DNA of 10,687 nucleotides from a virus. Its lineage: Duplodnaviria > Heunggongvirae > Uroviricota > Caudoviricetes. The DNA lies in the IMG/VR virus record IMGVR_UViG_2740892444_000005, positions 1-10,687 of that record; one strand, given 5' to 3'. Position numbers and translations under genes: made by a program. Under the pieces are notes generated by a model. That model made no database searches and was not told where the DNA came from. It saw nothing but the letters and a program-made list of their open reading frames with translations. Shown here piece after piece: positions 1 to 10,687 of the stretch (position 1 is its first letter; each line of letters starts with the position of its first letter).

Positions 1-16
1 TTACAAACTCACTACA

Positions 17-340
17 ATGCTGTATAATTCGCGAAGAGTGAATTTAGCTAGTGCATCCATAGGTTCAATTCCTATGCCTACAATTCTCATCACAGCTCTC
101 CTAATAGTCGCATTTATCCGTTACCTCAACGTGTTACTTAACGATTACGTCAGTAAGGAGAAGCCTATGAGTAAATTATTCTGCCATGTAGTACTATATG
201 TATCTTGTTTCATTGAAACTTTTTGGGCTGGGGTGATAAGTGTAGTAGCGGGTCTGATGACGGGCGGTGTCCAAATTATTTTGGCACTAGCTAAATCTTC
301 TCAATTTTTGTTTTTTTATTCAAAGCACTTACACCCATAA
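17..340 (+). CDS. small hydrophobic protein of unknown function (possible membrane peptide); 5' end unresolved
   Basis: The frame is open back to the window start (no in-frame stop in nt 2-16), so the gene may be 5'-partial. An alternative internal start ATG at 177 is preceded by AAGGAG (165-170). The product has hydrophobic stretches (ILITALLIVAF; GVISVVAGLMTGGVQIILALA). I recognise no family. Confidence 0.3.
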   Translation: MLYNSRRVNLASASIGSIPMPTILITALLIVAFIRYLNVLLNDYVSKEKPMSKLFCHVVLYVSCFIETFWAGVISVVAGLMTGGVQIILALAKSSQFLFFYSKHLHP

Positions 341-908
341 ATATTATTTAAATCAATAAACTAAGTCACTCTACGCATATTTTCCTTATCATGGTCTTTC
401 GTGTTTTTTGTACTCAACATGATCGTTTCCCCTTTCTTTAATACACAGTGTGATTAGCTACGTCTTCTGTTGGAGCGAAGTGGACGGGTTAATTGAGCTG
501 AATGTCAGCTATGAGCGAAGAGCGGACTTGAGACTATTGTAAATGAAAACCATATAATTTTAACCGGCAGAAACACATGAGTAATTTTAAGGCTAATTAG
601 TTATCTGGGAGATGAGGGGCAAAGCACGATATCGTACACCAATGGAATAACCTTATGATTAATATAAATATAAAAGACAGAAAGCCTTCCTCAAAATGGC
701 TTGAATCAGGTGCATCTGTCTGCGAAACGATTTTTTAGACGTTTTTATCGCTTTCAGTTCAGTTTTCCCCTCGAATCCAAGTGACAAAGCCGATTTAGTT
801 TTCACACATCCGTACAATGTGCATCCCTCGATGAGCCTTTTCAGGCAAAGTTACGGGGATGCTTGATTCATTTAAACTGAGTTAGTACAACTTAATTAAT
901 AATATCAT

Positions 909-1955
909 TTATGCTAGAGTTGAATATTCTCCATTTCCTCGGTCGGTGAGTGTTAATTCGCGGCCATTTTCTGTAAATGTAATGGCATCCAGCAGGCTTT
1001 TTCCTGTTACAGCTATACCATATCCAAGGTTATCAATCTTTGAACTGTCCTCAGATGATATTGGTATTTGTACAAGCATACCAACAACAAAGCCGTATTT
1101 GTTAATTATAGGGCCACCGCTATTCCCCCCCTTAACCCTAGCATTGAATAATAAAAAGTCTTGTGAATCTAAGTAAGAGTGACCAGAACCAACAATTCGC
1201 CCCTTTGACAGTCGGACAAACGAATTTATATGCGAAACGTCATATAACTTTAATGCATCAAATCCTGGAATGGGTGGAAATCCTATTGATAAAATTTCAT
1301 CCAGTACCGAGGCTTTGGTTGAGACCTTAAGTGGTTGAATATTATCTTCCTTCGGAATGGTTGTGAAAACTAAAGCGATATCAATACGTTCATCGTTAGA
1401 TACAAAGATTTTATGTATTGGTAAAGCCTCACCACCAGCTCTAAGTATCCTGATACTCTTCATGTCTTCAATAACATGTCTGGCTGTAAATATCGTGTGG
1501 TTATTCCCAACAATAAAACTAGTACCAAGATCATGTGAACCATCACTTTTTTCAACAACAACAGGTAAAACGGAAGGACTAAGGCGGTCTATGATTGACT
1601 CAAATCCATCAGCTATAAAATCATACTTTCCATATTTCGCATCTGATTCATTGAAATTCGGTGCGAAATAGCAACGGTCAAAAAGAGTATGTCCTGAAGA
1701 CAATTCCATTAAAATACCTTCAGTTGCTAGCTTTTCACAATTGCGTATTAACTTCATCATATCGAGAGTATTTTCCCACTCAGGTTTGAGACGGGTCAGG
1801 CTCTCAATTGTTTTTCTCTCTTTTACGTTATCGTTTTCCGGTTTGTCATAAAAATATTTCACTATTTCTGTTGGTGTTACATATGTTTTTTTTATAGTCA
1901 TTTTTGTACCCGCGATGACGTTATTCCATATATTTTTCTTTGTAGAAAATATCAC
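909..1955 (-). CDS. trypsin-like (S1/PA-clan) serine protease with uncharacterised ~135-aa N-terminal domain; no obvious signal peptide
   Basis: 348-aa ORF. The catalytic triad is in canonical order and context: His160 in TARHVIED, Asp192 in DIALVF, Ser279 in GGNSGGP (codons at nt ~1119-1121 on the minus strand). The N-terminus is not hydrophobic, so the protein is probably cytoplasmic. The start at 1955 is GTG; an alternative ATG lies at 1901 (M19). Neither has a strong Shine-Dalgarno sequence. The gene is AT-rich. Confidence 0.8.
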   Translation of the reverse strand: MIFSTKKNIWNNVIAGTKMTIKKTYVTPTEIVKYFYDKPENDNVKERKTIESLTRLKPEWENTLDMMKLIRNCEKLATEGILMELSSGHTLFDRCYFAPNFNESDAKYGKYDFIADGFESIIDRLSPSVLPVVVEKSDGSHDLGTSFIVGNNHTIFTARHVIEDMKSIRILRAGGEALPIHKIFVSNDERIDIALVFTTIPKEDNIQPLKVSTKASVLDEILSIGFPPIPGFDALKLYDVSHINSFVRLSKGRIVGSGHSYLDSQDFLLFNARVKGGNSGGPIINKYGFVVGMLVQIPISSEDSSKIDNLGYGIAVTGKSLLDAITFTENGRELTLTDRGNGEYSTLA

Positions 1956-2361
1956 TATTGCTGGTAAATGTTAAGTTCAGTGCTCGCACTAAAGCTGGAT
2001 GATCAACGTCGCCCTCGTATGGAAATCAGGTAAGATTCATGTCTACTTGGGGTCTAGGGTAGACAGCATAAAAACGTACGATAGCGTTCGATTGGCTCTC
2101 ACCCCCGCCTATAAACCATGAGGTTGATAGGGTAGTATCGTTAGGCAATAGTATACATGTAAGTATCCAACCTAATTGGTCTTGAGATTTCTAACTAACG
2201 TGTCGTTATGTCCGCTTTTGGCACATAGCAGTCCTAGAGACAGTGTCGTAAAGTCATGTAGGATCGGTGGGAGGAGGTAAAAATCCTCTCATACAAAAAT
2301 ACGTAAAATCGATAACGGCTGGAGATCATTCAATACTCGCCCTATCGAAAGCTCACCAGCC

Positions 2362-2397
2362 AGCCGCAACACGTTCTTACATATGACGTGTCTGCGG
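2362..2397. repeat. imperfect-palindrome hairpin element, copy A (paired with copy B at 4832-4867)
   Basis: AGCCGCAACACGTTCTTACATATGACGTGTCTGCGG matches 4832-4867 at 30 of 36 positions. It folds as CCGCA-ACACGTT / AACGTG-TGCGG with a 1-nt bulge. Weaker similarity extends into both flanks (ACCA..GCC upstream, TC.AA.C downstream). Confidence 0.6.
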
Positions 2398-2410
2398 TTT
2401 CAACTCCACC

Positions 2411-2447
2411 AGCCCACCAATCATGATTGGGCTTTTTCGTTTTTCTT
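2411..2447 (+). terminator. putative intrinsic terminator (GC-rich hairpin followed by T-tracts)
   Basis: AGCCCACCAATCATGATTGGGCT (stem AGCCCA/TGGGCT) is followed directly by TTTTTCGTTTTTCTT. The T-run follows the hairpin only on the plus strand. No plus-strand ORF lies upstream of it. Confidence 0.55.
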
Positions 2448-2574
2448 CACCTGCAAGCAAACCGTTGTATCATGGCGGAATGAAGATGAGCTAGGAATAA
2501 TCTTACGAATCAGCTCAATATTCATATAAAAACATTTCGAACTTTGGTGTACAAAACTACATAGGGATAACTTT

Positions 2575-3777
2575 ATGTCTCTTCGTTTCAGACAAACCTT
2601 TACTCTATTTCCTGGCGTTCGACTCAACATTGGCAAGCGTGGAATAAGTGCAAGCATTGGCGTGCCTGGCGCAACTGTCAATGTTGGTAAAAAAGGGGTT
2701 AGAGCAACTGTCGGATTACCGGGCACAGGCTTATCTTATACTACACCTACCTTGCCCTATGATGATGGATACTCAGTTACCAATCCATTAAATCCAGCCC
2801 CTACAGAACCTCATTTGGGGTCTGGGTCATCTCCAGAAAATACACCATCGAACGCTAAAATATATATGCCTGTAGCTGGCATGAATGAAATATCCAGCGC
2901 TTCGGTAGAAGTCCTTACAAGTACCTCCCTTTTACCTTTACGAGATTTGATTGCTAAAGCACGAGAACAAAGAGCAGAAATAAAAGCAGATCTTCAAGAG
3001 GCTCTTGCCGAAGAATCAAAACAAAAAAGCGAGCTGGCTCGACGCAAATCAAGTCTATTCCGTTGGTTTTACAAACGACGCATCGCAGAACTTGAGACAC
3101 TACTCCCCCTAACCCAAGCTGAGATATCTCGCCTAGTTTCATGGGAAGACAGCACAAAAATAGCCATAACATTCGAGAGCAGTGATGCTTCACAGCGCGC
3201 ATATGCAGCGATGGTCCATGCATTTGATATGTTAAAATCGAGTGTCAAAAAATGGGATATTACTGCAGATAAAGCTACAGACCAGTTTGCTGAAAGAACA
3301 TTAGCAACCCGGTCTGTTAATCGTCACCCAGTTACCTTTGATTTTAGTTCAACGGATCTCATTCAATTTACAGGGCGTGCGATGAGGTTTGAAAATGTGA
3401 ATGGAGACGATATTTTGCTTTATCCTGGAGTTGCAGTCATACCACGAGCTGATGGAGCATTCGCTCTGATTGATTTACGCGAATTACAAATTAATTCAGA
3501 ATATCTAAGATTCCATGAGGAAGAAGGTGTTCCCAGTGACTCACGCATAGATGGTTATACATGGGCGAAAACGAATAAGAATGGCTCACCAGACCGTCGT
3601 TTTAAAGATAACTACCAAATCCCTATTTGCATTTATGGAAATATTACTTTCCATTCTCAAACAGGGGTAACTGAAGAATATATGGTATCAAATGCAGATG
3701 CCGCGCACGCCTTTGCTGAGGCAGTAAAACGTTATCAGATTTCACTCACAGAAACAGAAGCGTTGGTACAGGCCTGA
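2575..3777 (+). CDS. DUF4236-type protein (N-terminal Gly/Lys/Arg-rich DUF4236-like module, P/S/T-rich linker, predicted coiled coil, uncharacterised C-terminal domain)
   Basis: 400-aa ORF with ATG at 2575 and RBS AGGGA at 2563-2567. The N-terminus RFRQTFTLFPGVRLNIGKRGISASIGVPGATVNVGKKGVRATVGLPGTGLSY matches my recollection of the DUF4236 signature. A low-complexity linker (PTLPYDDGYSVTNPLNPAPTEPHLGSGSSPENTPSN) and a charged helical segment (AKAREQRAEIKADLQEALAEESKQKSELARRK) follow. I cannot assign the C-terminal ~200 aa. The gene is AT-rich. Confidence 0.85.
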   Translation: MSLRFRQTFTLFPGVRLNIGKRGISASIGVPGATVNVGKKGVRATVGLPGTGLSYTTPTLPYDDGYSVTNPLNPAPTEPHLGSGSSPENTPSNAKIYMPVAGMNEISSASVEVLTSTSLLPLRDLIAKAREQRAEIKADLQEALAEESKQKSELARRKSSLFRWFYKRRIAELETLLPLTQAEISRLVSWEDSTKIAITFESSDASQRAYAAMVHAFDMLKSSVKKWDITADKATDQFAERTLATRSVNRHPVTFDFSSTDLIQFTGRAMRFENVNGDDILLYPGVAVIPRADGAFALIDLRELQINSEYLRFHEEEGVPSDSRIDGYTWAKTNKNGSPDRRFKDNYQIPICIYGNITFHSQTGVTEEYMVSNADAAHAFAEAVKRYQISLTETEALVQA

Positions 3778-3836
3778 TTTATCGCCGATATGGGGACGAA
3801 TCGTAGGTTAAAACCCCCTAGAACAAAAAAAACCTT

Positions 3837-3864
3837 AAGAACCAGACTATTATGGCTGGTTCTT
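3837..3864. other. perfect 9-bp-stem hairpin between the two cassette genes (possible terminator/attenuator)
   Basis: AAGAACCAG-(10 nt loop)-CTGGTTCTT. It lies 60 nt after the stop of the 2575-3777 gene and is preceded by an A8 tract (3823-3830). That gives a T8 run after the hairpin on the minus strand, with a 4-nt spacer. There is no clean T-run after it on the plus strand, so orientation and function are ambiguous. Confidence 0.3.
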
Positions 3865-3881
3865 GTACGGAGGATTTGTTA

Positions 3882-3908
3882 TTGTACAACTCTTCTATCT
3901 GGTATATT
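3882..3908 (+). promoter_or_regulatory. candidate sigma70 promoter with extended -10 for the DUF2971 gene
   Basis: -35-like TTGTAC (3882-3887), a 15-bp spacer (short), TG at 3900-3901 and -10 TATATT (3903-3908), i.e. TGgTATATT. It lies ~80 nt upstream of the ATG at 3991. Motif match only. Confidence 0.3.
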
Positions 3909-3990
3909 TACGGATAGAACTGTTCAGGCTACTCAATCCTTTTTAAGTACAAATGAACAGATAGAAATAGTTATATTGCAAGGAGCTATC

Positions 3991-4779
3991 ATGCACACTG
4001 AGTATATATGGCGATACCTTGACATAGAGAAATTCTCTATGTTACTCGAACAAAATGCTTTATTTTTTTGCTCAGCAAAAAATTTTGAAGATCCGTTCGA
4101 AGGTGAATTTGCTTGGGGACATACTGGCTATAAAAAATTCATTGAGACACAGGAAAAACTATGCGCTACTTATGGTGCCGGCATGGACTTAGATCCTTTC
4201 ATGGCATTCAATTTAAAGACACTTAAGGAAATAAGCGAGAGGACATATATAAGTTGCTGGCATTGTAACGAACATGAATCTGAAGCTATGTGGAAGCTGT
4301 ATTGTAAAAACCCCGCTAAAGGCGTTGTCATAAAATCAAAGAAAAAAAACCTCCAAAGCCAACTTGAAAATAATAATCTAAACAAACTACAATTAAAACA
4401 CGTAAAATACGTCAAAAATTTCTGGATAAAACAATACAATCCAGAATCAGATGTATTCTTTAACAAGAGACCATCTTTCGAATACGAAAAAGAGTTTAGA
4501 GCTATTTTTCAAGAGAATACCTTTAACACTCCACCTGTAAAGGGAAAACTAGTCCCTGTATCTCTTAATAATCTGTTGGAAGAAATAAGGATTTCACCTT
4601 TCGCAGATAAGGATTTCAAAAATGAAGTTTTACAAATTTCAAAAAAACATGGACTAGATCTGAAAGTCAAAAACTCTGAAATTGAAATGCATCCCATCAT
4701 GCATGTTGAGGAAGAAATAATTGCAGAAGGCCCCAATTGGTATCAGTCAAAAATCAGATTGGCAATACGTGATGCTTAA
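3991..4779 (+). CDS. DUF2971-type protein
   Basis: 262-aa product starting at the ATG at 3991, which is preceded by AGGAG (3981-3985). The ORF-track start at 3790 is rejected because it has no RBS and the extension spans the hairpin. The family hallmarks as I recall them are present: YIWRYLDIEKFSMLLEQNALFFCSAKNFEDPFEGEF, CWHCNEHESEAMWKLYCKNPAKGVVIK and FEYEKEFRAIF. The gene is AT-rich. Confidence 0.85.
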   Translation: MHTEYIWRYLDIEKFSMLLEQNALFFCSAKNFEDPFEGEFAWGHTGYKKFIETQEKLCATYGAGMDLDPFMAFNLKTLKEISERTYISCWHCNEHESEAMWKLYCKNPAKGVVIKSKKKNLQSQLENNNLNKLQLKHVKYVKNFWIKQYNPESDVFFNKRPSFEYEKEFRAIFQENTFNTPPVKGKLVPVSLNNLLEEIRISPFADKDFKNEVLQISKKHGLDLKVKNSEIEMHPIMHVEEEIIAEGPNWYQSKIRLAIRDA

Positions 4780-4831
4780 TCTTATATTGAAGTTTTTTAT
4801 GTCTCCTGCTGAAACTAGCTAAAATTTACCA

Positions 4832-4867
4832 AGCCGCAGCACGTTATTGCATACAACGTGTATGCGG
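4832..4867. repeat. imperfect-palindrome hairpin element, copy B; probable bidirectional terminator between convergent DUF2971 gene and tfa
   Basis: AGCCGCAGCACGTTATTGCATACAACGTGTATGCGG has the same fold as copy A. It lies 15 nt from the tfa stop (4883-4885) and ~50 nt after the DUF2971 stop. Confidence 0.6.
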
Positions 4868-4882
4868 CGTATCTCAAAACGA

Positions 4883-5467
4883 TTACTCCATAACAGGGAC
4901 AGCAGGCCACTCAATATCAGGTGCAGTTGATGTATCAACACGGTTCAGCAACACCCGATACTTCTTCCAGGCTTCCAGCAACGAGTTTTCTTCCTCCGTT
5001 GCGATCTCCAGATCTACAGCATCCTGAAGTGGCGCAATATGCTCACTGGCTACCTGCATCAGGCTGTTTTTTGTTTCTTCCGCCTCCCGGATCCGGAACA
5101 GTTTTTCTGCTTCCGTATCCTTCACCCAGGCTGTGCCGTTCCACTTCTGAAACTCCCCTTCCGGCGATAACCAGGTAACATTTTCCGGTAACGGACCGAG
5201 TTCAGAAATAAATAACGCGTCGCCGGAAGCCACGTCATAAACCGTTTTACCCCGATGGTCTTCAACGAGATGCCACGATGCCTCATCACTGTTGAAAACA
5301 GCCACAAAGCCAGCAGGAATATCTGGTGGTGCAATATCGGTACTGTTTGCTGGCAGACCTGTATGAGGCGGAATATATGCGTCACCTTCACCAATAAATT
5401 CATTAGTCCCGACCAGCAGATTATAAATTTTTATGGTCCGTGGTTGTTCACTCATTCTGAATGCCAT
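4883..5467 (-). CDS. tfa: tail fiber assembly protein (lambda Tfa-like)
   Basis: 194-aa product, [18 protein letters not shown]...EWPAVPVME, is near-identical in length and sequence to lambda Tfa as I recall it. Its start overlaps the upstream stf stop (TAATG on the minus strand at 5465-5469). Confidence 0.9.
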
Positions 5468-6678
5468 TATGCAAGCCTCACAATATAGTTAAATGCGATG
5501 TTTTTGACGGTGTTTTCCGCATTACCAGCAGCGTTAACGGTGATGGTGTGTCCATGTGAACCAATCGCAACGGAGTGCGTATGAGCACCAATACCGACAG
5601 TATGCGCGTGTGCACCTGCAGATGCTGCTGTGCCGGACAGTGAGTGGCTATGATTACCATCTGTACTGGTATTAGCTAACCACCCCGTAGACATACCTAC
5701 TGAGCCTTGTACACCCCAGGTATTTTGACCTGAGCTTGTATAACCATATTGATAAGTATCTTTAAAAACACTGGGGTTAAATCGACGGCCATCTCTATGG
5801 CTGTGATTACCAGCTGCATTCGTGCTGCCACTTAAACTATGAGTATGCGCACCAGTGTTATTCGTGGATTTAGTGCCGTAATCAAACGATGATGTGGTTT
5901 TCGTACCCAAATCCGTACTGGATACGCTGGCGCTGTGGGTGTGCGATTTAATGCCGTCCTGTTCCTGAGACAATACGGCACGACCACTGGCGGGCTTGCC
6001 CTTAATCGTCCAGCCACGCATATCAGGGATCACGCCTGACGGATAAGCGGCTGCAAGTTTCGGGTAAGCAGATTTGTCAAAAGTCTGCCCCTGCATCAGG
6101 GCATAACCAGACGGAACGGTATCTGATGGCCACGGGATTGGTGCGCCGACTGGGTAGCTTTCTGGTGGAAGATTTTTCGAGGTATAAACTTCTGCCCAGT
6201 CTTCCTCAAAACCATAACCGTCTCTTGAAGAACGGTAGAACAGACCACCATTTCTGTAATGCGCCTTCATCTGCAGGGTCCGGCAACTTCCGACTCCGGT
6301 ATAGAAGTTAACCAGAATATAGCTGTCGCCAGAGCGGGTGACATTGTAAGCGCCTGATTCGGCATTCCAGGGAACGCCACCATCCGCATCGGCATATGTA
6401 TCCGTTGCCCTTCTGGCAAAAGCAGCCACATGCGCGGCGGTTATCCAGATTAACCAAATCCTTGTTGTTGGGGAATAACTAGGTCCACCTCGCCTGATGT
6501 GGCTAAAAGCAGGCACATAACAGCTAAGTATTTTCAACCAGAGAGAATCCTTAGCGTTGTGGTGAATGCGGCTCAGCGCACGCGGGTTAAGGTTGAGGCT
6601 GACAGTCGACCTTCTGTGGATACCCACCCGCCTGGTGTGCAACCTTCGCCAGGCACCGGGAGGCACCCGGCACCACAA
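5467..6678 (-). pseudogene. stf: side tail fiber protein remnant (C-terminal portion only, 5'-truncated)
   Basis: The C-terminal ~320 aa match the lambda Stf / StfR-type C-terminus as I recall it ([31 protein letters not shown]...[25 protein letters not shown]...[27 protein letters not shown]), including the periodic His-rich motifs (GAHTHS, GNHSHS, GAHAHT, GSHGHT). The N-terminal ~85 aa of the ORF (nt ~6420-6678) read as non-protein-like sequence, and no plausible start or upstream stf body is present. Full-length Stf is far longer. Confidence 0.8.
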
Positions 6679-6701
6679 CTTTATGCTGTGTGTAGTCCTG
6701 G

Positions 6702-6747
6702 CGGTACCAGTTTGTACCCTTGCTTCCGGCTGGTACCGTCCTTTTTT
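6702..6747 (+). terminator. putative intrinsic terminator (9-bp perfect stem, T6 tract)
   Basis: CGGTACCAG (6702-6710) and CTGGTACCG (6730-6738) form a perfect inverted repeat, each arm containing GGTACC, with a 19-nt loop. It is followed by TCC then TTTTTT (6742-6747). The T-run is on the plus strand only. The loop is unusually long. Confidence 0.4.
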
Positions 6748-6748
6748 G

Positions 6749-6835
6749 CAAAACAGAGAAGAGCATCACCGGACGACGGGCTCATAACCCAATCCATCCG
6801 GGCGGCTGCCACCGCAGGTGTTCTTCTCTGTTTTG
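6749..6835. repeat. long inverted repeat / extended hairpin (14-bp perfect arms, ~59-nt spacer) upstream of the yfdP-like gene
   Basis: CAAAACAGAGAAGA (6749-6762) pairs with TCTTCTCTGTTTTG (6822-6835). The pairing extends imperfectly inward (ATCACC.. with ..GGTG). It sits immediately after the 6702-6747 hairpin and ~50 nt upstream of the yfdP-like start. Confidence 0.4.
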
Positions 6836-6884
6836 TGGAGAAACCAACCGACCTTGCAGGGTCGATATGATGAGGAGCAGCAAA

Positions 6885-7247
6885 ATGGCTAGCGAACGCA
6901 GTACTGATGTGCAGGCATTTATCGGGGAGCTGGACGGCGGCGTATTTGAAACCAAAATCGGCGCAGTTCTCAGTGAAGTCGCTTCCGGTGTGATGAACAC
7001 GAAAACCAAAGGGAAGGTCTCACTCAATCTGGAAATCGAACCGTTTGATGAGAACCGTGTGAAAATCAAACACAAACTCTCATATGTTCGCCCAACTAAC
7101 CGCGGGAAAATTTCTGAAGAAGACACCACCGAAACGCCGATGTATGTCAATCGCGGTGGTCGCCTGACTATTCTGCAGGAAGACCAGGGACAATTACTGA
7201 CTCTTGCCGGTGAGCCTGACGGAAAACTCCGCGCAGCAGGTCATTAA
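6885..7247 (+). CDS. yfdP: YfdP-like prophage protein (unknown function)
   Basis: 120-aa product starting MASERSTDVQAFIGELDGG, from the ATG at 6885 preceded by GAGGAG (6872-6877). Alternative in-frame ATGs at 6867 and 6870 would add 5-6 aa. Length and sequence match my recollection of K-12 CPS-53 YfdP; the symbol is from memory. Confidence 0.65.
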   Translation: MASERSTDVQAFIGELDGGVFETKIGAVLSEVASGVMNTKTKGKVSLNLEIEPFDENRVKIKHKLSYVRPTNRGKISEEDTTETPMYVNRGGRLTILQEDQGQLLTLAGEPDGKLRAAGH

Positions 7248-7312
7248 TATCGTTCTTAATTAACTGATTATTTATCTCATCACTGAATATCTTAATATAG
7301 TGAGGACTTATT

Positions 7313-8137
7313 ATGTCTCAGAACTTAGACGCAACCGCAATTAATCAAATCCATGCCCTTATTTCTGCTCAGGGTGTTAATGAAATTATCAGTAAGATTG
7401 GTGCCGATGCTGTGGCATTGCCTGAGAATTTCCGCATTCATGATCTGGAAAAATTTAATTTAAATCGCTTCCGTTTCCGTGGTGCGCTTTCCACTGCCAG
7501 CATCGATGACTTTACCCGTTATTCTAAAGATCTTGCAGATGAAGGCACCCGCTGCTTTATCGATGCTGATAATATGCGTGCCGTCAGTGTGCTTAACCTG
7601 GGTACTATTGATGAACCAGGTCACGCAGATAACACCGCCACTCTCAAACTGAAAAAGACAGCACCGTTCTCTGCCCTGTTGTCTGTTAACGGCGAGCGTA
7701 ACGCCCAGAAATCACTGGCAGAATGGATTGAAGACTGGGCAGACTACCTTGTGGGCTTTGATGCTAATGGTGACGCCATTCAGGCAACAAAAGCGGCTGC
7801 GGCAATCCGTAAAATCACGATTGAAGCAAACCAGACCGCTGATTTTGAAGATAATGACTTCAGCGGCAAACGCTCCCTGATGGAATCTGTCGAAGCGAAG
7901 ACCAAAGACATTATGCCAGTGGCATTTGAATTTAAATGCGTTCCGTTTGAAGGTCTGAAAGAACGTCCGTTTAAATTACGCCTCAGCATTATCACTGGCG
8001 ATCGTCCTGTACTGGTTCTGCGCATTATTCAGCTGGAAGCGGTGCAGGAAGATATGGCTAACGAATTTCGTGATCTGCTTGTTGAGAAATTCAAAGACAG
8101 CAAAGTAGAAACCTTTATTGGTACTTTCACCGCCTGA
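7313..8137 (+). CDS. yfdQ: YfdQ-like prophage protein (DUF2303 family)
   Basis: 274-aa product starting [26 protein letters not shown], with RBS GAGGA at 7303-7307. It matches my recollection of K-12 YfdQ (274 aa). Confidence 0.8.
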
Positions 8138-8149
8138 TTTCATTACTGC

Positions 8150-8171
8150 AAATGCCCCTGTGGGGGCATTT
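8150..8171 (+). other. hairpin after yfdQ-like gene (weak candidate terminator/attenuator)
   Basis: AAATGCCCC-TGTG-GGGGCATTT: a 9-bp perfect stem with a 4-nt loop, 13 nt after the yfdQ stop. The T residues lie inside the 3' arm rather than forming a free U-tract, so termination is uncertain. Confidence 0.25.
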
Positions 8172-8264
8172 ATGGAAACGTAATTAACTCAATAATCACC
8201 GAATGGTGAGGGCTTCCTTTTACCCAAACTCAGCGCGGTGCAGCGCATATACGTGGAGAACAAA

Positions 8265-8801
8265 ATGTCATTTATTAAAACTTTTTCCGGGAAGCATTTT
8301 TATTATGACAAGATAAATAAAGACGACATCGTGATTAACGATATCGCGGTTTCCCTTTCAAATATCTGCCGCTTTGCCGGTCATCTTTCTCACTTCTACA
8401 GTGTCGCCCAACATGCGGTGCTTTGCAGCCAGCTGGTGCCGCAGGAATTTGCTTTTGAAGCGTTAATGCATGATGCAACAGAAGCGTATTGCCAGGACAT
8501 CCCCGCACCACTGAAACGCCTTCTTCCTGACTATAAACGGATGGAAGAAAAAATAGATGCAGTAATCCGTGAGAAATACGGGTTACCTCCTGTTATGAGC
8601 ACGCCAGTGAAATATGCCGATCTCATTATGCTGGCAACCGAACGCCGTGATCTCGGGCTTGATGATGGCTCTTTATGGCCTGTACTGGAAGGTATCCCGG
8701 CAACAGAGATGTTCAAAGTTATTCCACTGGCACCGGGCCATGCCTACGGGATGTTTATGGAACGCTTCAACGAGTTATCGGAATTACGCAAATGTGCATA
8801 A
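8265..8801 (+). CDS. yfdR: HD-domain phosphohydrolase (YfdR-like)
   Basis: 178-aa product from the ATG at 8265 (RBS GGAGAA at 8255-8260; the ORF-track start at 8238 is rejected). It has HD-superfamily motifs (HLSHFYSVAQHAVL; ALMHDATEAYCQD). It matches my recollection of K-12 YfdR. Confidence 0.85.
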   Translation: MSFIKTFSGKHFYYDKINKDDIVINDIAVSLSNICRFAGHLSHFYSVAQHAVLCSQLVPQEFAFEALMHDATEAYCQDIPAPLKRLLPDYKRMEEKIDAVIREKYGLPPVMSTPVKYADLIMLATERRDLGLDDGSLWPVLEGIPATEMFKVIPLAPGHAYGMFMERFNELSELRKCA

Positions 8802-9670
8802 CTCATGTAGTTAGTTTTTCTGGCGGGAGAACATCCGCATATCTTGTTCACCTGATGGAAGAACAAAGAAAGGCTGGCAATAACGTCTGCTACATCTTTA
8901 TGGATACCGGTTGCGAACATCCGCTGACATACCGCTTTATCCGGGAGGTTGTGAAGTTCTGGGACATACCACTAACTGTGTTACAGGTCGATATAAATCC
9001 TGAGCTTGGGCAGCCAAATGGTTATACAGAATGGGAGCCAAAGGATATTCAGACACGAATGCCGGTGCTTAAACCGTTTATGGACATGGTTAAAAAGTAC
9101 GGCACGCCATACATCGGCGGCGCGTTCTGTACTGACAGGCTAAAACTCATCCCTTTCACGAAATACTGCGATAACCATTTCGGACGAGGTAATTACATCA
9201 CATGGCTGGGTATTCGTGCAGACGAACCCCGTAGGCTGAAACCGAAATCGGGCATCCGGTATCTTGCCGAGCTGTCAGATTTTGATAAGTCGGATGTTAT
9301 CCGGTGGTGGCGAAAACAACCTTTTGATTTGCAAATCCCGGAGCATCTCGGGAACTGTGTTTTCTGCATCAAAAAGTCAACGCAAAAGCTGGGGCTTGCA
9401 TGTAAAGACGAACCAGGTCTGATGCGAGTTTTTAATGAGCTGGTTACAGGCAAACACGTCAGGGATGGTCATCGCAGAACAGGTAAAGACATTATGTACC
9501 GTGGTCACCTGACGCTTGACGGAATTGCCAGAATGTCTGCCAACAGCGACTACAGAAATTTGTATCAGGCAATGGTACAGGCCAGGCGATTCGATACCGG
9601 CTCGTGTTCAGAGTCATGTGAAATCTGGGGTGATCAATTGGAATTGGAATTCGAAGAGGTAGGGGTATGA
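8792..9670 (+). CDS. PAPS-reductase-like / PP-loop ATP-pyrophosphatase family protein (phage type)
   Basis: 292-aa product from the ATG at 8792, which overlaps the yfdR stop (ATGTGCATAA). The N-terminal PP-loop motif SFSGGRTS is present. Relatives are common in lambdoid prophage early regions. The ORF-track start at 8675 is rejected because it would overlap yfdR by ~40 codons. Confidence 0.8.
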   Translation: MCITHVVSFSGGRTSAYLVHLMEEQRKAGNNVCYIFMDTGCEHPLTYRFIREVVKFWDIPLTVLQVDINPELGQPNGYTEWEPKDIQTRMPVLKPFMDMVKKYGTPYIGGAFCTDRLKLIPFTKYCDNHFGRGNYITWLGIRADEPRRLKPKSGIRYLAELSDFDKSDVIRWWRKQPFDLQIPEHLGNCVFCIKKSTQKLGLACKDEPGLMRVFNELVTGKHVRDGHRRTGKDIMYRGHLTLDGIARMSANSDYRNLYQAMVQARRFDTGSCSESCEIWGDQLELEFEEVGV

Positions 9671-10011
9671 CAACCGAAATCAGCTACCATGCACTGCTTG
9701 AGCGCGCACGGAATAAAGTGCAGAGCATTGAGTTCGCCTTAACACAGAGTGCATTCGCTGAGATTCGCGCTGAGCTTGAAAATGATTTAGAACTGGCACG
9801 GATTGCACTGGCATCTCTGGAAGTTGAGCCAGATGAACGCGCAGCCTATGAATTATTTATGGAAAAGCGTTTCGGTAAAACAGTCGATCGTCGGAGAGCA
9901 AAAAACGGCGATAACGAATACATGGCATGGGATATGACTCTCGGTTGGATCGTCTGGCAGCAACGAGCTGGTATCCATTTTTCAACAATGTCACAGCAAG
10001 AGGTGAAATAA
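9667..10011 (+). CDS. hypothetical prophage early-region protein
   Basis: 114-aa ORF. Its ATG overlaps the upstream stop (ATGA at 9667-9670) and its stop overlaps the xis start (TAATG at 10009-10013). Acidic, helical-looking sequence. No family recognised. Confidence 0.65.
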   Translation: MTTEISYHALLERARNKVQSIEFALTQSAFAEIRAELENDLELARIALASLEVEPDERAAYELFMEKRFGKTVDRRRAKNGDNEYMAWDMTLGWIVWQQRAGIHFSTMSQQEVK

Positions 10012-10361
10012 TGGAGCCATACAGCCTCACACTCGATGAGGCCTGTCATTTTCTCAAGATATCCAGACCGACTGCCATTAACTGGATACGCACAGGGCGT
10101 CTTCAGGCAACACGCAAAGATCCCACTAAGAATAAATCTCCTTACCTCACAACACGACAAGCCTGCATTGCGGCTCTTCAGTCTCCGCTGCATACTGTCC
10201 AGGTGAGCGCGGGTGATGGCATAACAGAGGAAAGAAAATGTCACTCTTCCGCAGAGGTGAAATATGGTACGCCAGTTTCACATTGCCGAACGGTAAAAGA
10301 TTTAAACAGTCTCTTGGAACAAAGGACAAAAGGCAGGCGACAGAACTCCATGACAAGCTAA
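10011..10361 (+). CDS. xis: excisionase (P22 Xis-like)
   Basis: 116-aa product [40 protein letters not shown], with RBS GAGGTGA at 10002-10008. It matches my recollection of P22-type Xis in length and sequence. It sits immediately upstream of, and overlapping, the integrase start. Confidence 0.75.
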
Positions 10362-10687
10362 AGGCTGAAGCATGGCGGGTCAGCAAACTTGGTGAAATAC
10401 CTGATATAACGTTCGAGGAAGCGTGTGTCAGGTGGCTTGAAGAGAAAGCACATAAAAAATCACTGGACGATGACAAAAGCCGGATCGGATTCTGGCTTCA
10501 ACATTTCGCAGGAATGCAACTAAGAGACATTACTGAATCAAAAATTTATTCAGCAATGCAGAAAATGACGAACCGGCGTCATGAGGAAAACTGGAAACTC
10601 AGGGCAGAAGCATGCAGAAAAAAAGGGAAACCTGTTCCAGAATACACGCCAAAACCAGCGTCCGTTGCAACGAAGGCTACGCACTGA
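10238..10687 (+). CDS. int: tyrosine integrase, N-terminal (arm-binding) region only; frame ends at TGA 10685-10687
   Basis: [46 protein letters not shown] is the N-terminus of P22 / CPS-53 IntS-type integrases as I recall them. RBS AGAGGA at 10226-10231. The frame terminates after 149 aa, whereas family members are ~385 aa. No catalytic domain is visible in this window. Confidence 0.8.

Follow-up and report, generated by a model that had tools for sequence, protein, structure and literature searches.

Two single-gene cargo modules, encoding a DUF4236 protein and a predicted DarT-like ADP-ribosyltransferase, probably lie side by side near the tail-fibre genes of an Escherichia coli prophage remnant

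We analysed a 10,687-nucleotide stretch of tailed-phage DNA (Caudoviricetes; IMG/VR record IMGVR_UViG_2740892444_000005, positions 1–10,687), hereafter the window, in which two neighbouring genes for proteins with the domains DUF4236 and DUF2971 lie downstream of the tail-fibre-assembly gene tfa. The window is Escherichia coli DNA, and its region 1900–5000 is 100% identical to several complete E. coli genomes; its source is a degraded prophage, located at tRNA-Thr/proA in strain CP66-6. The DUF4236 gene (2575–3777) and the DUF2971 gene (3991–4779) are both on the plus strand and convergent with tfa (4883–5467, minus strand; Pfam Caudo_TAP, E value 7.8e-45), the last late gene. A first-pass annotation made from the sequence alone had presented them as a candidate novel, AT-rich two-gene accessory cassette. 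Both open reading frames (ORFs) and their Pfam domains were found as it described, and so was the AT-richness, with a G+C content of 0.43 for the DUF4236 gene and 0.34 for the DUF2971 gene, against 0.49–0.51 for the tail genes. However, the two genes are not a conserved pair. We consider it probable, at a little over 60%, that they are two unrelated, independently mobile single-gene cargo modules lying side by side in one E. coli lineage, in a hotspot near the tail fibres, and that the DUF2971 gene encodes a DarT-like ADP-ribosyltransferase (ART).

The DUF2971 protein has 262 amino acids (aa; ORF 3790/3991–4779). Its start at 3991 is backed by full-length 262-aa homologs and by PADLOC profile alignments beginning at residues 5–7; the RefSeq start corresponds to window position 4039 (246 aa). 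The Pfam domain DUF2971 (PF11185) was recovered at residues 100–170, above the gathering score (30.7 bits, cutoff 22), and four profiles of PDC-S31, a single-gene "phage defence candidate" of PADLOC, matched the protein, the best being PDLC04993 (E value 2.5e-20, profile positions 67–235 of 245). An AlphaFold model built with an alignment of 35 sequences (predicted local distance difference test, pLDDT, 92.7; predicted template modelling score, pTM, 0.84) has a predicted fold of the DarT-type ART class. The family alignment is invariant at E166-x-E168 (within FEYEKEFR), Y140, D34 and E37 and nearly so at S97 and Y104, and R8 lies in a conserved WRY on strand 1; R8, S97, Y104, Y140 and the ExE were tentatively assigned to ART motifs on the basis of their description in the literature. 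The invariant ExE and tyrosine agree with a survey that groups DUF2971 with the DarT/AbiGi-like ARTs and describes a conserved Tyr and an ExE in it (PMC12522546). The first-pass annotation had singled out FEDPFE as a hallmark of the protein. This motif is real and its D34 and E37 are invariant, but the catalytic ExE named in the literature lies elsewhere, in FEYEKEFR (E166, E168), and not in FEDPFE (PMC12522546).

The model confidence, the invariant E166-x-E168 and Y140, the PDC-S31 match and the literature together lead us to predict that the gene encodes a DarT-like ART of an already catalogued candidate anti-phage class, and the suggestion that it was unnamed and novel can be set aside: besides PDC-S31 and the DarT/AbiGi-like assignment, the DUF2971 protein Aristaios, carried on a lactococcal plasmid, is a validated single-gene abortive infection system (PMC11381338). 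The window protein resembles PDC-S31 in its hidden Markov model match and in having orthologs that are single genes in cargo positions of prophages and islands; it differs in that its gene happens to adjoin an unrelated DUF4236 gene, and the PDC families are bioinformatic candidates. The searched literature did not mention PDC-S31. With Aristaios, the window protein shares PF11185, the predicted ART fold and the single-gene organisation, although Aristaios is 316 aa long, plasmid-borne and from a Gram-positive (Lactococcus) host. Its identity with DarT in structural alignments is 8–14%, and it differs from DarT by large helical insertions and an additional region at the C-terminus. There was no DarT Pfam match at E ≤ 0.1 and no PDB sequence match at E ≤ 1, and a DarG macrodomain partner was present neither at the locus, where the neighbours are the DUF4236 gene and tfa, nor beside the solo orthologs. 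Since both a sequence-level DarT match and the macrodomain partner are missing, the protein is not a member of DarTG. An anti-phage role for the gene is plausible.

The DUF4236 gene encodes a 400-aa protein, here called DUF4236-long. Its DUF4236 domain (PF14020) occupies residues 3–56 (E value 3e-21; 76.1 bits, cutoff 27, gathering score passed) and the protein matches phrog_17982, a label without a function, over its full length (E value 5e-194); it thus resembles the phrog_17982/DUF4236 proteins both in this full-length match and in its typical DUF4236 N-terminus. Nothing besides DUF4236 was found for it in Pfam, PADLOC, NCBIfam and the PDB. NCBIfam returned no match for the DUF2971 protein either, and PDB sequence searches with the family profiles of both proteins were also negative. 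The AlphaFold model reproduces the architecture that had been read from the sequence. The N-terminal 57 residues are basic (+8, with no acidic residue) and are predicted to form a Gly-rich beta-meander, followed by a variable Pro/Ser-rich low-complexity linker, two long helices at 122–194 (a predicted coiled coil) and a beta-rich C-terminal domain, which contains the strikingly conserved motif W-x-K-x-N-K-D-G-S-P-D-R-R-F-x-x-N-Y-Q-I-P. We detected no hydrophobic or transmembrane segment (maximum KD19 1.34), signal peptide, SH3 or PG-binding domain in DUF4236-long.

The family of this protein is large. Full-length homologs have 85–93% identity in other Enterobacterales and 65–70% in Rhodobacterales, and the C-terminal 300 residues recovered 2911 clusters (50% identity) at E ≤ 1e-3 and 393 at E ≤ 1e-30. 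A Pfam census covered the window protein and those 71 of 133 relatives that exceed about 415 aa; 32 of the 71 carry a bacterial SH3 domain at the C-terminus and four have PG_binding_1, additions that hint, at the level of domain content, at a cell-wall connection for part of the family. The neighbours of DUF4236-long are varied and include SRAP/YedK, a KAP NTPase (PDC-S49 type), DUF6602/PD-DExK, ABC-3C CTD1, integrases, a resolvase and a MobA relaxase; in Paracoccus and Phaeobacter the gene lies amid plain housekeeping genes. Pseudenterobacter timonensis has, about 1 kb downstream of DUF4236-long, a further, small ORF (150 aa; L099:10243–10692, plus strand) whose N-terminus is a DUF4236 domain. 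A literature search for PF14020 yielded nothing relevant, and the single paper that names DUF4236 records one such gene, beside YedK and UmuC, in a remnant prophage of Salmonella. From its location alone, our working guess is that DUF4236-long is a stand-alone cargo protein of the exclusion or defence type. A tentative and rather doubtful extension of this guess would make it the first representative of a new and widespread family of single genes for anti-phage defence or superinfection exclusion; its C-terminal domain has no known fold relative. We raise it because of the roughly 2900 clusters, the 65–70% identity between the E. coli and Rhodobacterales proteins, and the occurrence of the gene at prophage ends and in integrative and conjugative elements (ICEs) and islands, often beside defence genes.

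Each of the two genes was found in 122 of 5426 complete E. coli genomes, and the entire segment also in 122, which are thus one genome set; the carriers share at least 98.4% nucleotide identity and have the segment in several prophage insertion sites. Beyond that single E. coli lineage, the genes were never found together. In viral contigs, DUF2971 was near DUF4236-long in four of 35 loci, those of the E. coli type, and in none of the remaining 31, and in species-representative genomes it was within 8 kb of DUF4236-long in none of 17 loci. A DUF4236 domain of any kind was missing within 6 kb in 33 of the 37 viral DUF2971 loci. The nearest relatives of each gene occur alone. The Klebsiella ortholog of DUF4236-long (93% identity) is the final gene of an ssrA-integrated prophage, antisense to the tail-fibre genes and without DUF2971, and DUF4236-long is likewise solitary in Paracoccus, in Phaeobacter and in a Serratia ICE, in which it adjoins genes for an OLD-type ATPase and a UvrD helicase (Gabija-like genes). 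A DUF2971 ortholog from Enterobacter soli (81% identity) is a solo gene that follows ogr where a P2-like prophage ends, another (82%) is alone in an integrase island, and no DUF4236 gene was found within 6 kb of either; Pseudomonas relatives of DUF2971 are alone in prophages. The first-pass annotation had itself proposed this survey of gene neighbourhoods and had named a lack of conserved co-occurrence across genomes as the outcome that speaks against a two-gene cassette. Such a lack is what the survey found, the adjacency of long DUF4236 and DUF2971 genes being confined to one E. coli lineage.

The two genes also differ in their state of preservation. Among ten E. coli-type loci that were checked, the DUF4236 gene was intact in all, whereas the DUF2971 gene was frameshifted in five. 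The frameshifts occur at four positions of the gene: at 352, where one nucleotide (nt) of an A8 run (4339–4350 of the window) is deleted, and at 73, 118 and 619, where there are separate indels. The A8 deletion recurs with identical linked substitutions in independent assemblies. Of the annotations that cover the gene in a spread sample of 40 rows from the 122 carriers, roughly one in four is something other than "DUF2971 domain-containing protein".

Each gene has sequence signals of its own. The 213-bp spacer between the genes holds a perfect 9-bp stem-loop (3837–3864, plus strand; AAGAACCAG / CTGGTTCTT), which, read from the sequence, is likely to mark the 3' end of the DUF4236 transcription unit; a terminator scan did not pick it up because it lacks a T-run. 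Downstream of it, the region 3865–3990 (plus strand), about 125 nt upstream of the DUF2971 gene, aligns with the homologous upstream regions of solo orthologs in other elements. An operon-like organisation with a shared regulatory region was therefore not found, given the spacer with its stem-loop and the separate upstream regions conserved elsewhere. On the other side of the DUF4236 gene, an intrinsic-terminator-like hairpin with a T-run (2411–2445, plus strand, by folding) would insulate the gene against upstream transcription, and in the alignment the Klebsiella sequence has, on visual inspection, a G+C-rich stem followed by a T-run at the corresponding position. A promoter scan and upstream alignments placed a promoter-like site, TTCACC-16-TATCAT (2446–2473), directly after this hairpin, followed by a leader of about 100 nt (2446–2574 in all, plus strand). 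The 130–140 nt upstream of the gene, including the −10-like TATCAT downstream of the terminator, are conserved with Klebsiella and Serratia; within 2446–2574 conservation between E. coli, Klebsiella and Serratia is strong (e.g., TTCATATAAAAACATTTCGAACTTTGG), and there is a GAGCT/AGCTC inverted repeat. A cis-regulatory element shared between classes was sought upstream of DUF4236-long, and the conservation was found to end at the Enterobacterales, being absent in Alphaproteobacteria.

Upstream of these signals, alignment to the Klebsiella transfer-messenger RNA (tmRNA) end revealed a relic of 38 nt from the 3' end of ssrA (2393–2430, plus strand), consisting of the T-arm and acceptor with 12 nt of flank. 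The alignment score was 56, against a shuffle maximum of 34. The relic, which lies directly after the left of two hairpins described below, has the same layout as the junction between ssrA and the Klebsiella prophage that carries the 93% ortholog; because of this match, the relic can be read as an old attachment-site scar, together with which the DUF4236 module appears to have been brought along. We also considered the whole of 2207–2410 as a diverged 3' half of ssrA, but rejected it, since the scored alignment to the Klebsiella tmRNA covered only 2393–2430. In the 620 nt of non-coding sequence that precede the DUF4236 gene, scans for tRNA and tmRNA genes and Rfam families gave nothing.

The two genes had been described as bracketed by a pair of similar hairpin repeats. 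The pair is real: a 36-nt direct repeat (repeat family D1) occurs on the left at 2362–2397 (plus strand) and on the right at 4832–4867 (no strand assigned), the latter between the convergent DUF2971 and tfa genes and immediately downstream of tfa; the copies are identical at 30 of 36 positions and each folds. However, they do not delimit a specific mobile unit. The right copy is the start of a sequence downstream of tfa (from about 4829) that is common to about 4365 E. coli genomes. The left copy ends a conserved non-coding boundary element of about 190 nt (2209–2397, plus strand), present in 398 E. coli genomes, mostly without the cassette, with Megablast homology stopping at about 2400. This element folds better than its shuffles (z −3.3), has one compensatory pair, is followed by a good T-run in AR_0162 and had no match in Rfam; it was also identified at L095:3501–3693, L096:3501–3695 and L097:3501–3689. 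In three cassette-free genomes that were examined, the element has a tail-fibre module (tfa or pinE) on one side and variable cargo on the other (SMODS+SLATT, an FRG-domain gene or a GIY-YIG gene). It could be a small RNA, a bidirectional terminator or a recombination boundary. The flanking hairpins thus belong to a conserved tail-fibre/cargo junction and not to the cargo, and the simplest explanation for a cassette between two diverged junction hairpins would be prophage recombination at this boundary.

In other E. coli prophages, the slot after tfa is occupied by other cargo: a ybcY methyltransferase pseudogene in DLP12, a gene for a 410-aa hypothetical protein in another strain, and elsewhere SMODS+SLATT or an FRG-domain gene. 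The earlier placement of the two genes as accessory cargo of a prophage, in a variable slot after tfa and in antisense orientation to the late genes, is thereby upheld, and the slot can be considered a cargo hotspot, because it receives other cargo and its junction sequence is widespread. Prophages are known to have such hotspots for cargo ("moron" or defence) genes, including the Z/fun and tin/old loci of P2 and the b region of lambda. The slot described here resembles them in its constant place where the tail-fibre genes end and in its variable, oppositely oriented, AT-rich cargo, which differs between related prophages. It differs in that, in part of the prophages, it is marked by the conserved 190-nt element with its hairpin, for which we found no description. 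Together, element and hairpin might be a marker, not described so far, for a defence hotspot adjacent to the tail-fibre genes of E. coli prophages.

We therefore favour two independent modules, since the nearest orthologs of each gene are solo, each gene has its own upstream region, the G+C content differs (0.43 vs 0.34) and the frameshifts affect DUF2971 only. The first module (about 2393–3865) would consist of the ssrA-end relic, the terminator, a promoter and leader of its own and DUF4236-long, in the layout seen at Klebsiella ssrA prophage ends, and the second (about 3865–4831) of the DUF2971 gene with its own upstream region; both would lie next to the tail-fibre genes, in a cargo hotspot prone to recombination. 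The DUF2971 protein would be a DarT-like, NAD+-dependent ART of the PDC-S31/Aristaios kind, acting as a single gene without a DarG-type antitoxin. Judging from its fold and family, it would most likely ADP-ribosylate a nucleic acid or an essential protein after a phage infection is sensed, so that phage replication would stop and the infection would be abortive. DUF4236-long may be a stand-alone protein expressed in the lysogen, oligomerising through its coiled coil and acting in exclusion or on the cell envelope.

Several observations weigh against this interpretation. Within E. coli, neither gene occurs without the other: both are in the same 122 genomes, co-oriented and 213 bp apart, and a lineage-specific functional coupling there is still conceivable. 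Some of the DUF2971 frameshifts, being in homopolymer runs, could be assembly errors. The model of DUF4236-long is poor (pLDDT 55, low confidence), and PADLOC, NCBIfam and the PDB gave no match that would suggest its role. For the DUF2971 protein, the likeness to Aristaios considered here is one of Pfam domain, fold and organisation, and PDC-S31 is a candidate family only, so that defence by the window protein stays a prediction.

Of the other explanations, the one that survives best, although unlikely, is that neither gene is a defence gene, with the DUF2971 protein modifying a host or competitor target in an effector-like or regulatory manner and DUF4236-long serving as a phage accessory at the envelope or cell wall, for example in lysis or conversion. 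The SH3 (32 of 71) and PG_binding_1 (4 of 71) domains of its longer relatives, its position amid housekeeping genes in Paracoccus and Phaeobacter, and the Legionella survey in which about 18% of DUF2971 proteins were predicted effectors (PMC12522546) would be consistent with such functions. However, DUF4236-long in the window has none of these domains, nor a signal peptide or a transmembrane segment, both genes recur beside defence-type genes, and the DUF2971 protein has both a PADLOC candidate match and a validated abortive infection relative with the same Pfam domain. We regard as highly unlikely that the E. coli pair is a recent, genuine two-gene defence system, with DUF4236-long as sensor or regulator and the DUF2971 ART as effector. 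Its location in a defence-type hotspot and its linkage in all 122 carriers, with shared orientation and a short spacer, argue for such a system, but the carriers are a single lineage at 98% nucleotide identity or more, so linkage alone suffices to explain their co-inheritance; moreover, the closest non-E. coli relatives of each gene are solo, each gene has an upstream region of its own, a stem-loop stands between the two, and DUF2971 decays while its neighbour stays intact. A DarTG-type toxin–antitoxin system, with the DUF2971 ART as toxin and DUF4236-long as antitoxin, would fit the DarT-like fold, the co-oriented upstream neighbour, as in many toxin–antitoxin operons, and the decay of what would be the toxin gene beside an intact antitoxin candidate, but is extremely improbable, because DUF4236-long has no macrodomain or other hydrolase signature and is widespread without an ART neighbour, and the 81–82% DUF2971 orthologs have no DUF4236 gene within 6 kb.

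The remainder of the window bears on the prophage itself. The tail-fibre ORF 5' of tfa (5467–6678, minus strand) resembles a C-terminal fragment only, its first 90 or so residues reading as out-of-frame filler, which makes the prophage a remnant. Strain CP66-6 has lost part even of tfa, which is joined there to a fragment of a PAPS-reductase gene. A strong Rfam match to IS009 (227 bits; 4926–5124, minus strand) lies wholly within the tfa coding sequence, where the RNA family corresponds to the conserved 3' portion of tail-fibre-assembly genes. For the small RNA family STnc100, a match below threshold (40.3 bits, gathering score 47; 6526–6749, plus strand) falls in a G+C-rich stretch between the truncated tail-fibre fragment and a yfdQ-like gene. 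To the left of the junction element, and next to it, 909–1955 (minus strand) encodes a 348-aa S1/trypsin-like serine protease (phrog_18002), whose PADLOC matches to RT-protease, LmuA and HamA arise via the protease domain only. Further left of the protease, strain CP66-6 has a PDC-S64-like gene and a reverse transcriptase among its genes, because of which the entire left flank looks like stacked defence-type cargo.

With two independent modules as the preferred reading, the apparently novel cassette would be a chance juxtaposition of two independently mobile genes, and a false lead is removed. The DUF2971 gene belongs to a catalogued candidate defence family, and DUF4236-long to a widespread uncharacterised one. 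The placement of the DUF2971 protein among DarT-like single-gene defence candidates yields a concrete biochemical hypothesis, involving NAD+ and the residues E166 and E168. DUF4236-long (phrog_17982) represents a very large, strongly conserved family that is worth experiment on its own, and the conserved non-coding junction element that marks the hotspot next to the tail-fibre genes could serve to mine further cargo in E. coli prophages.

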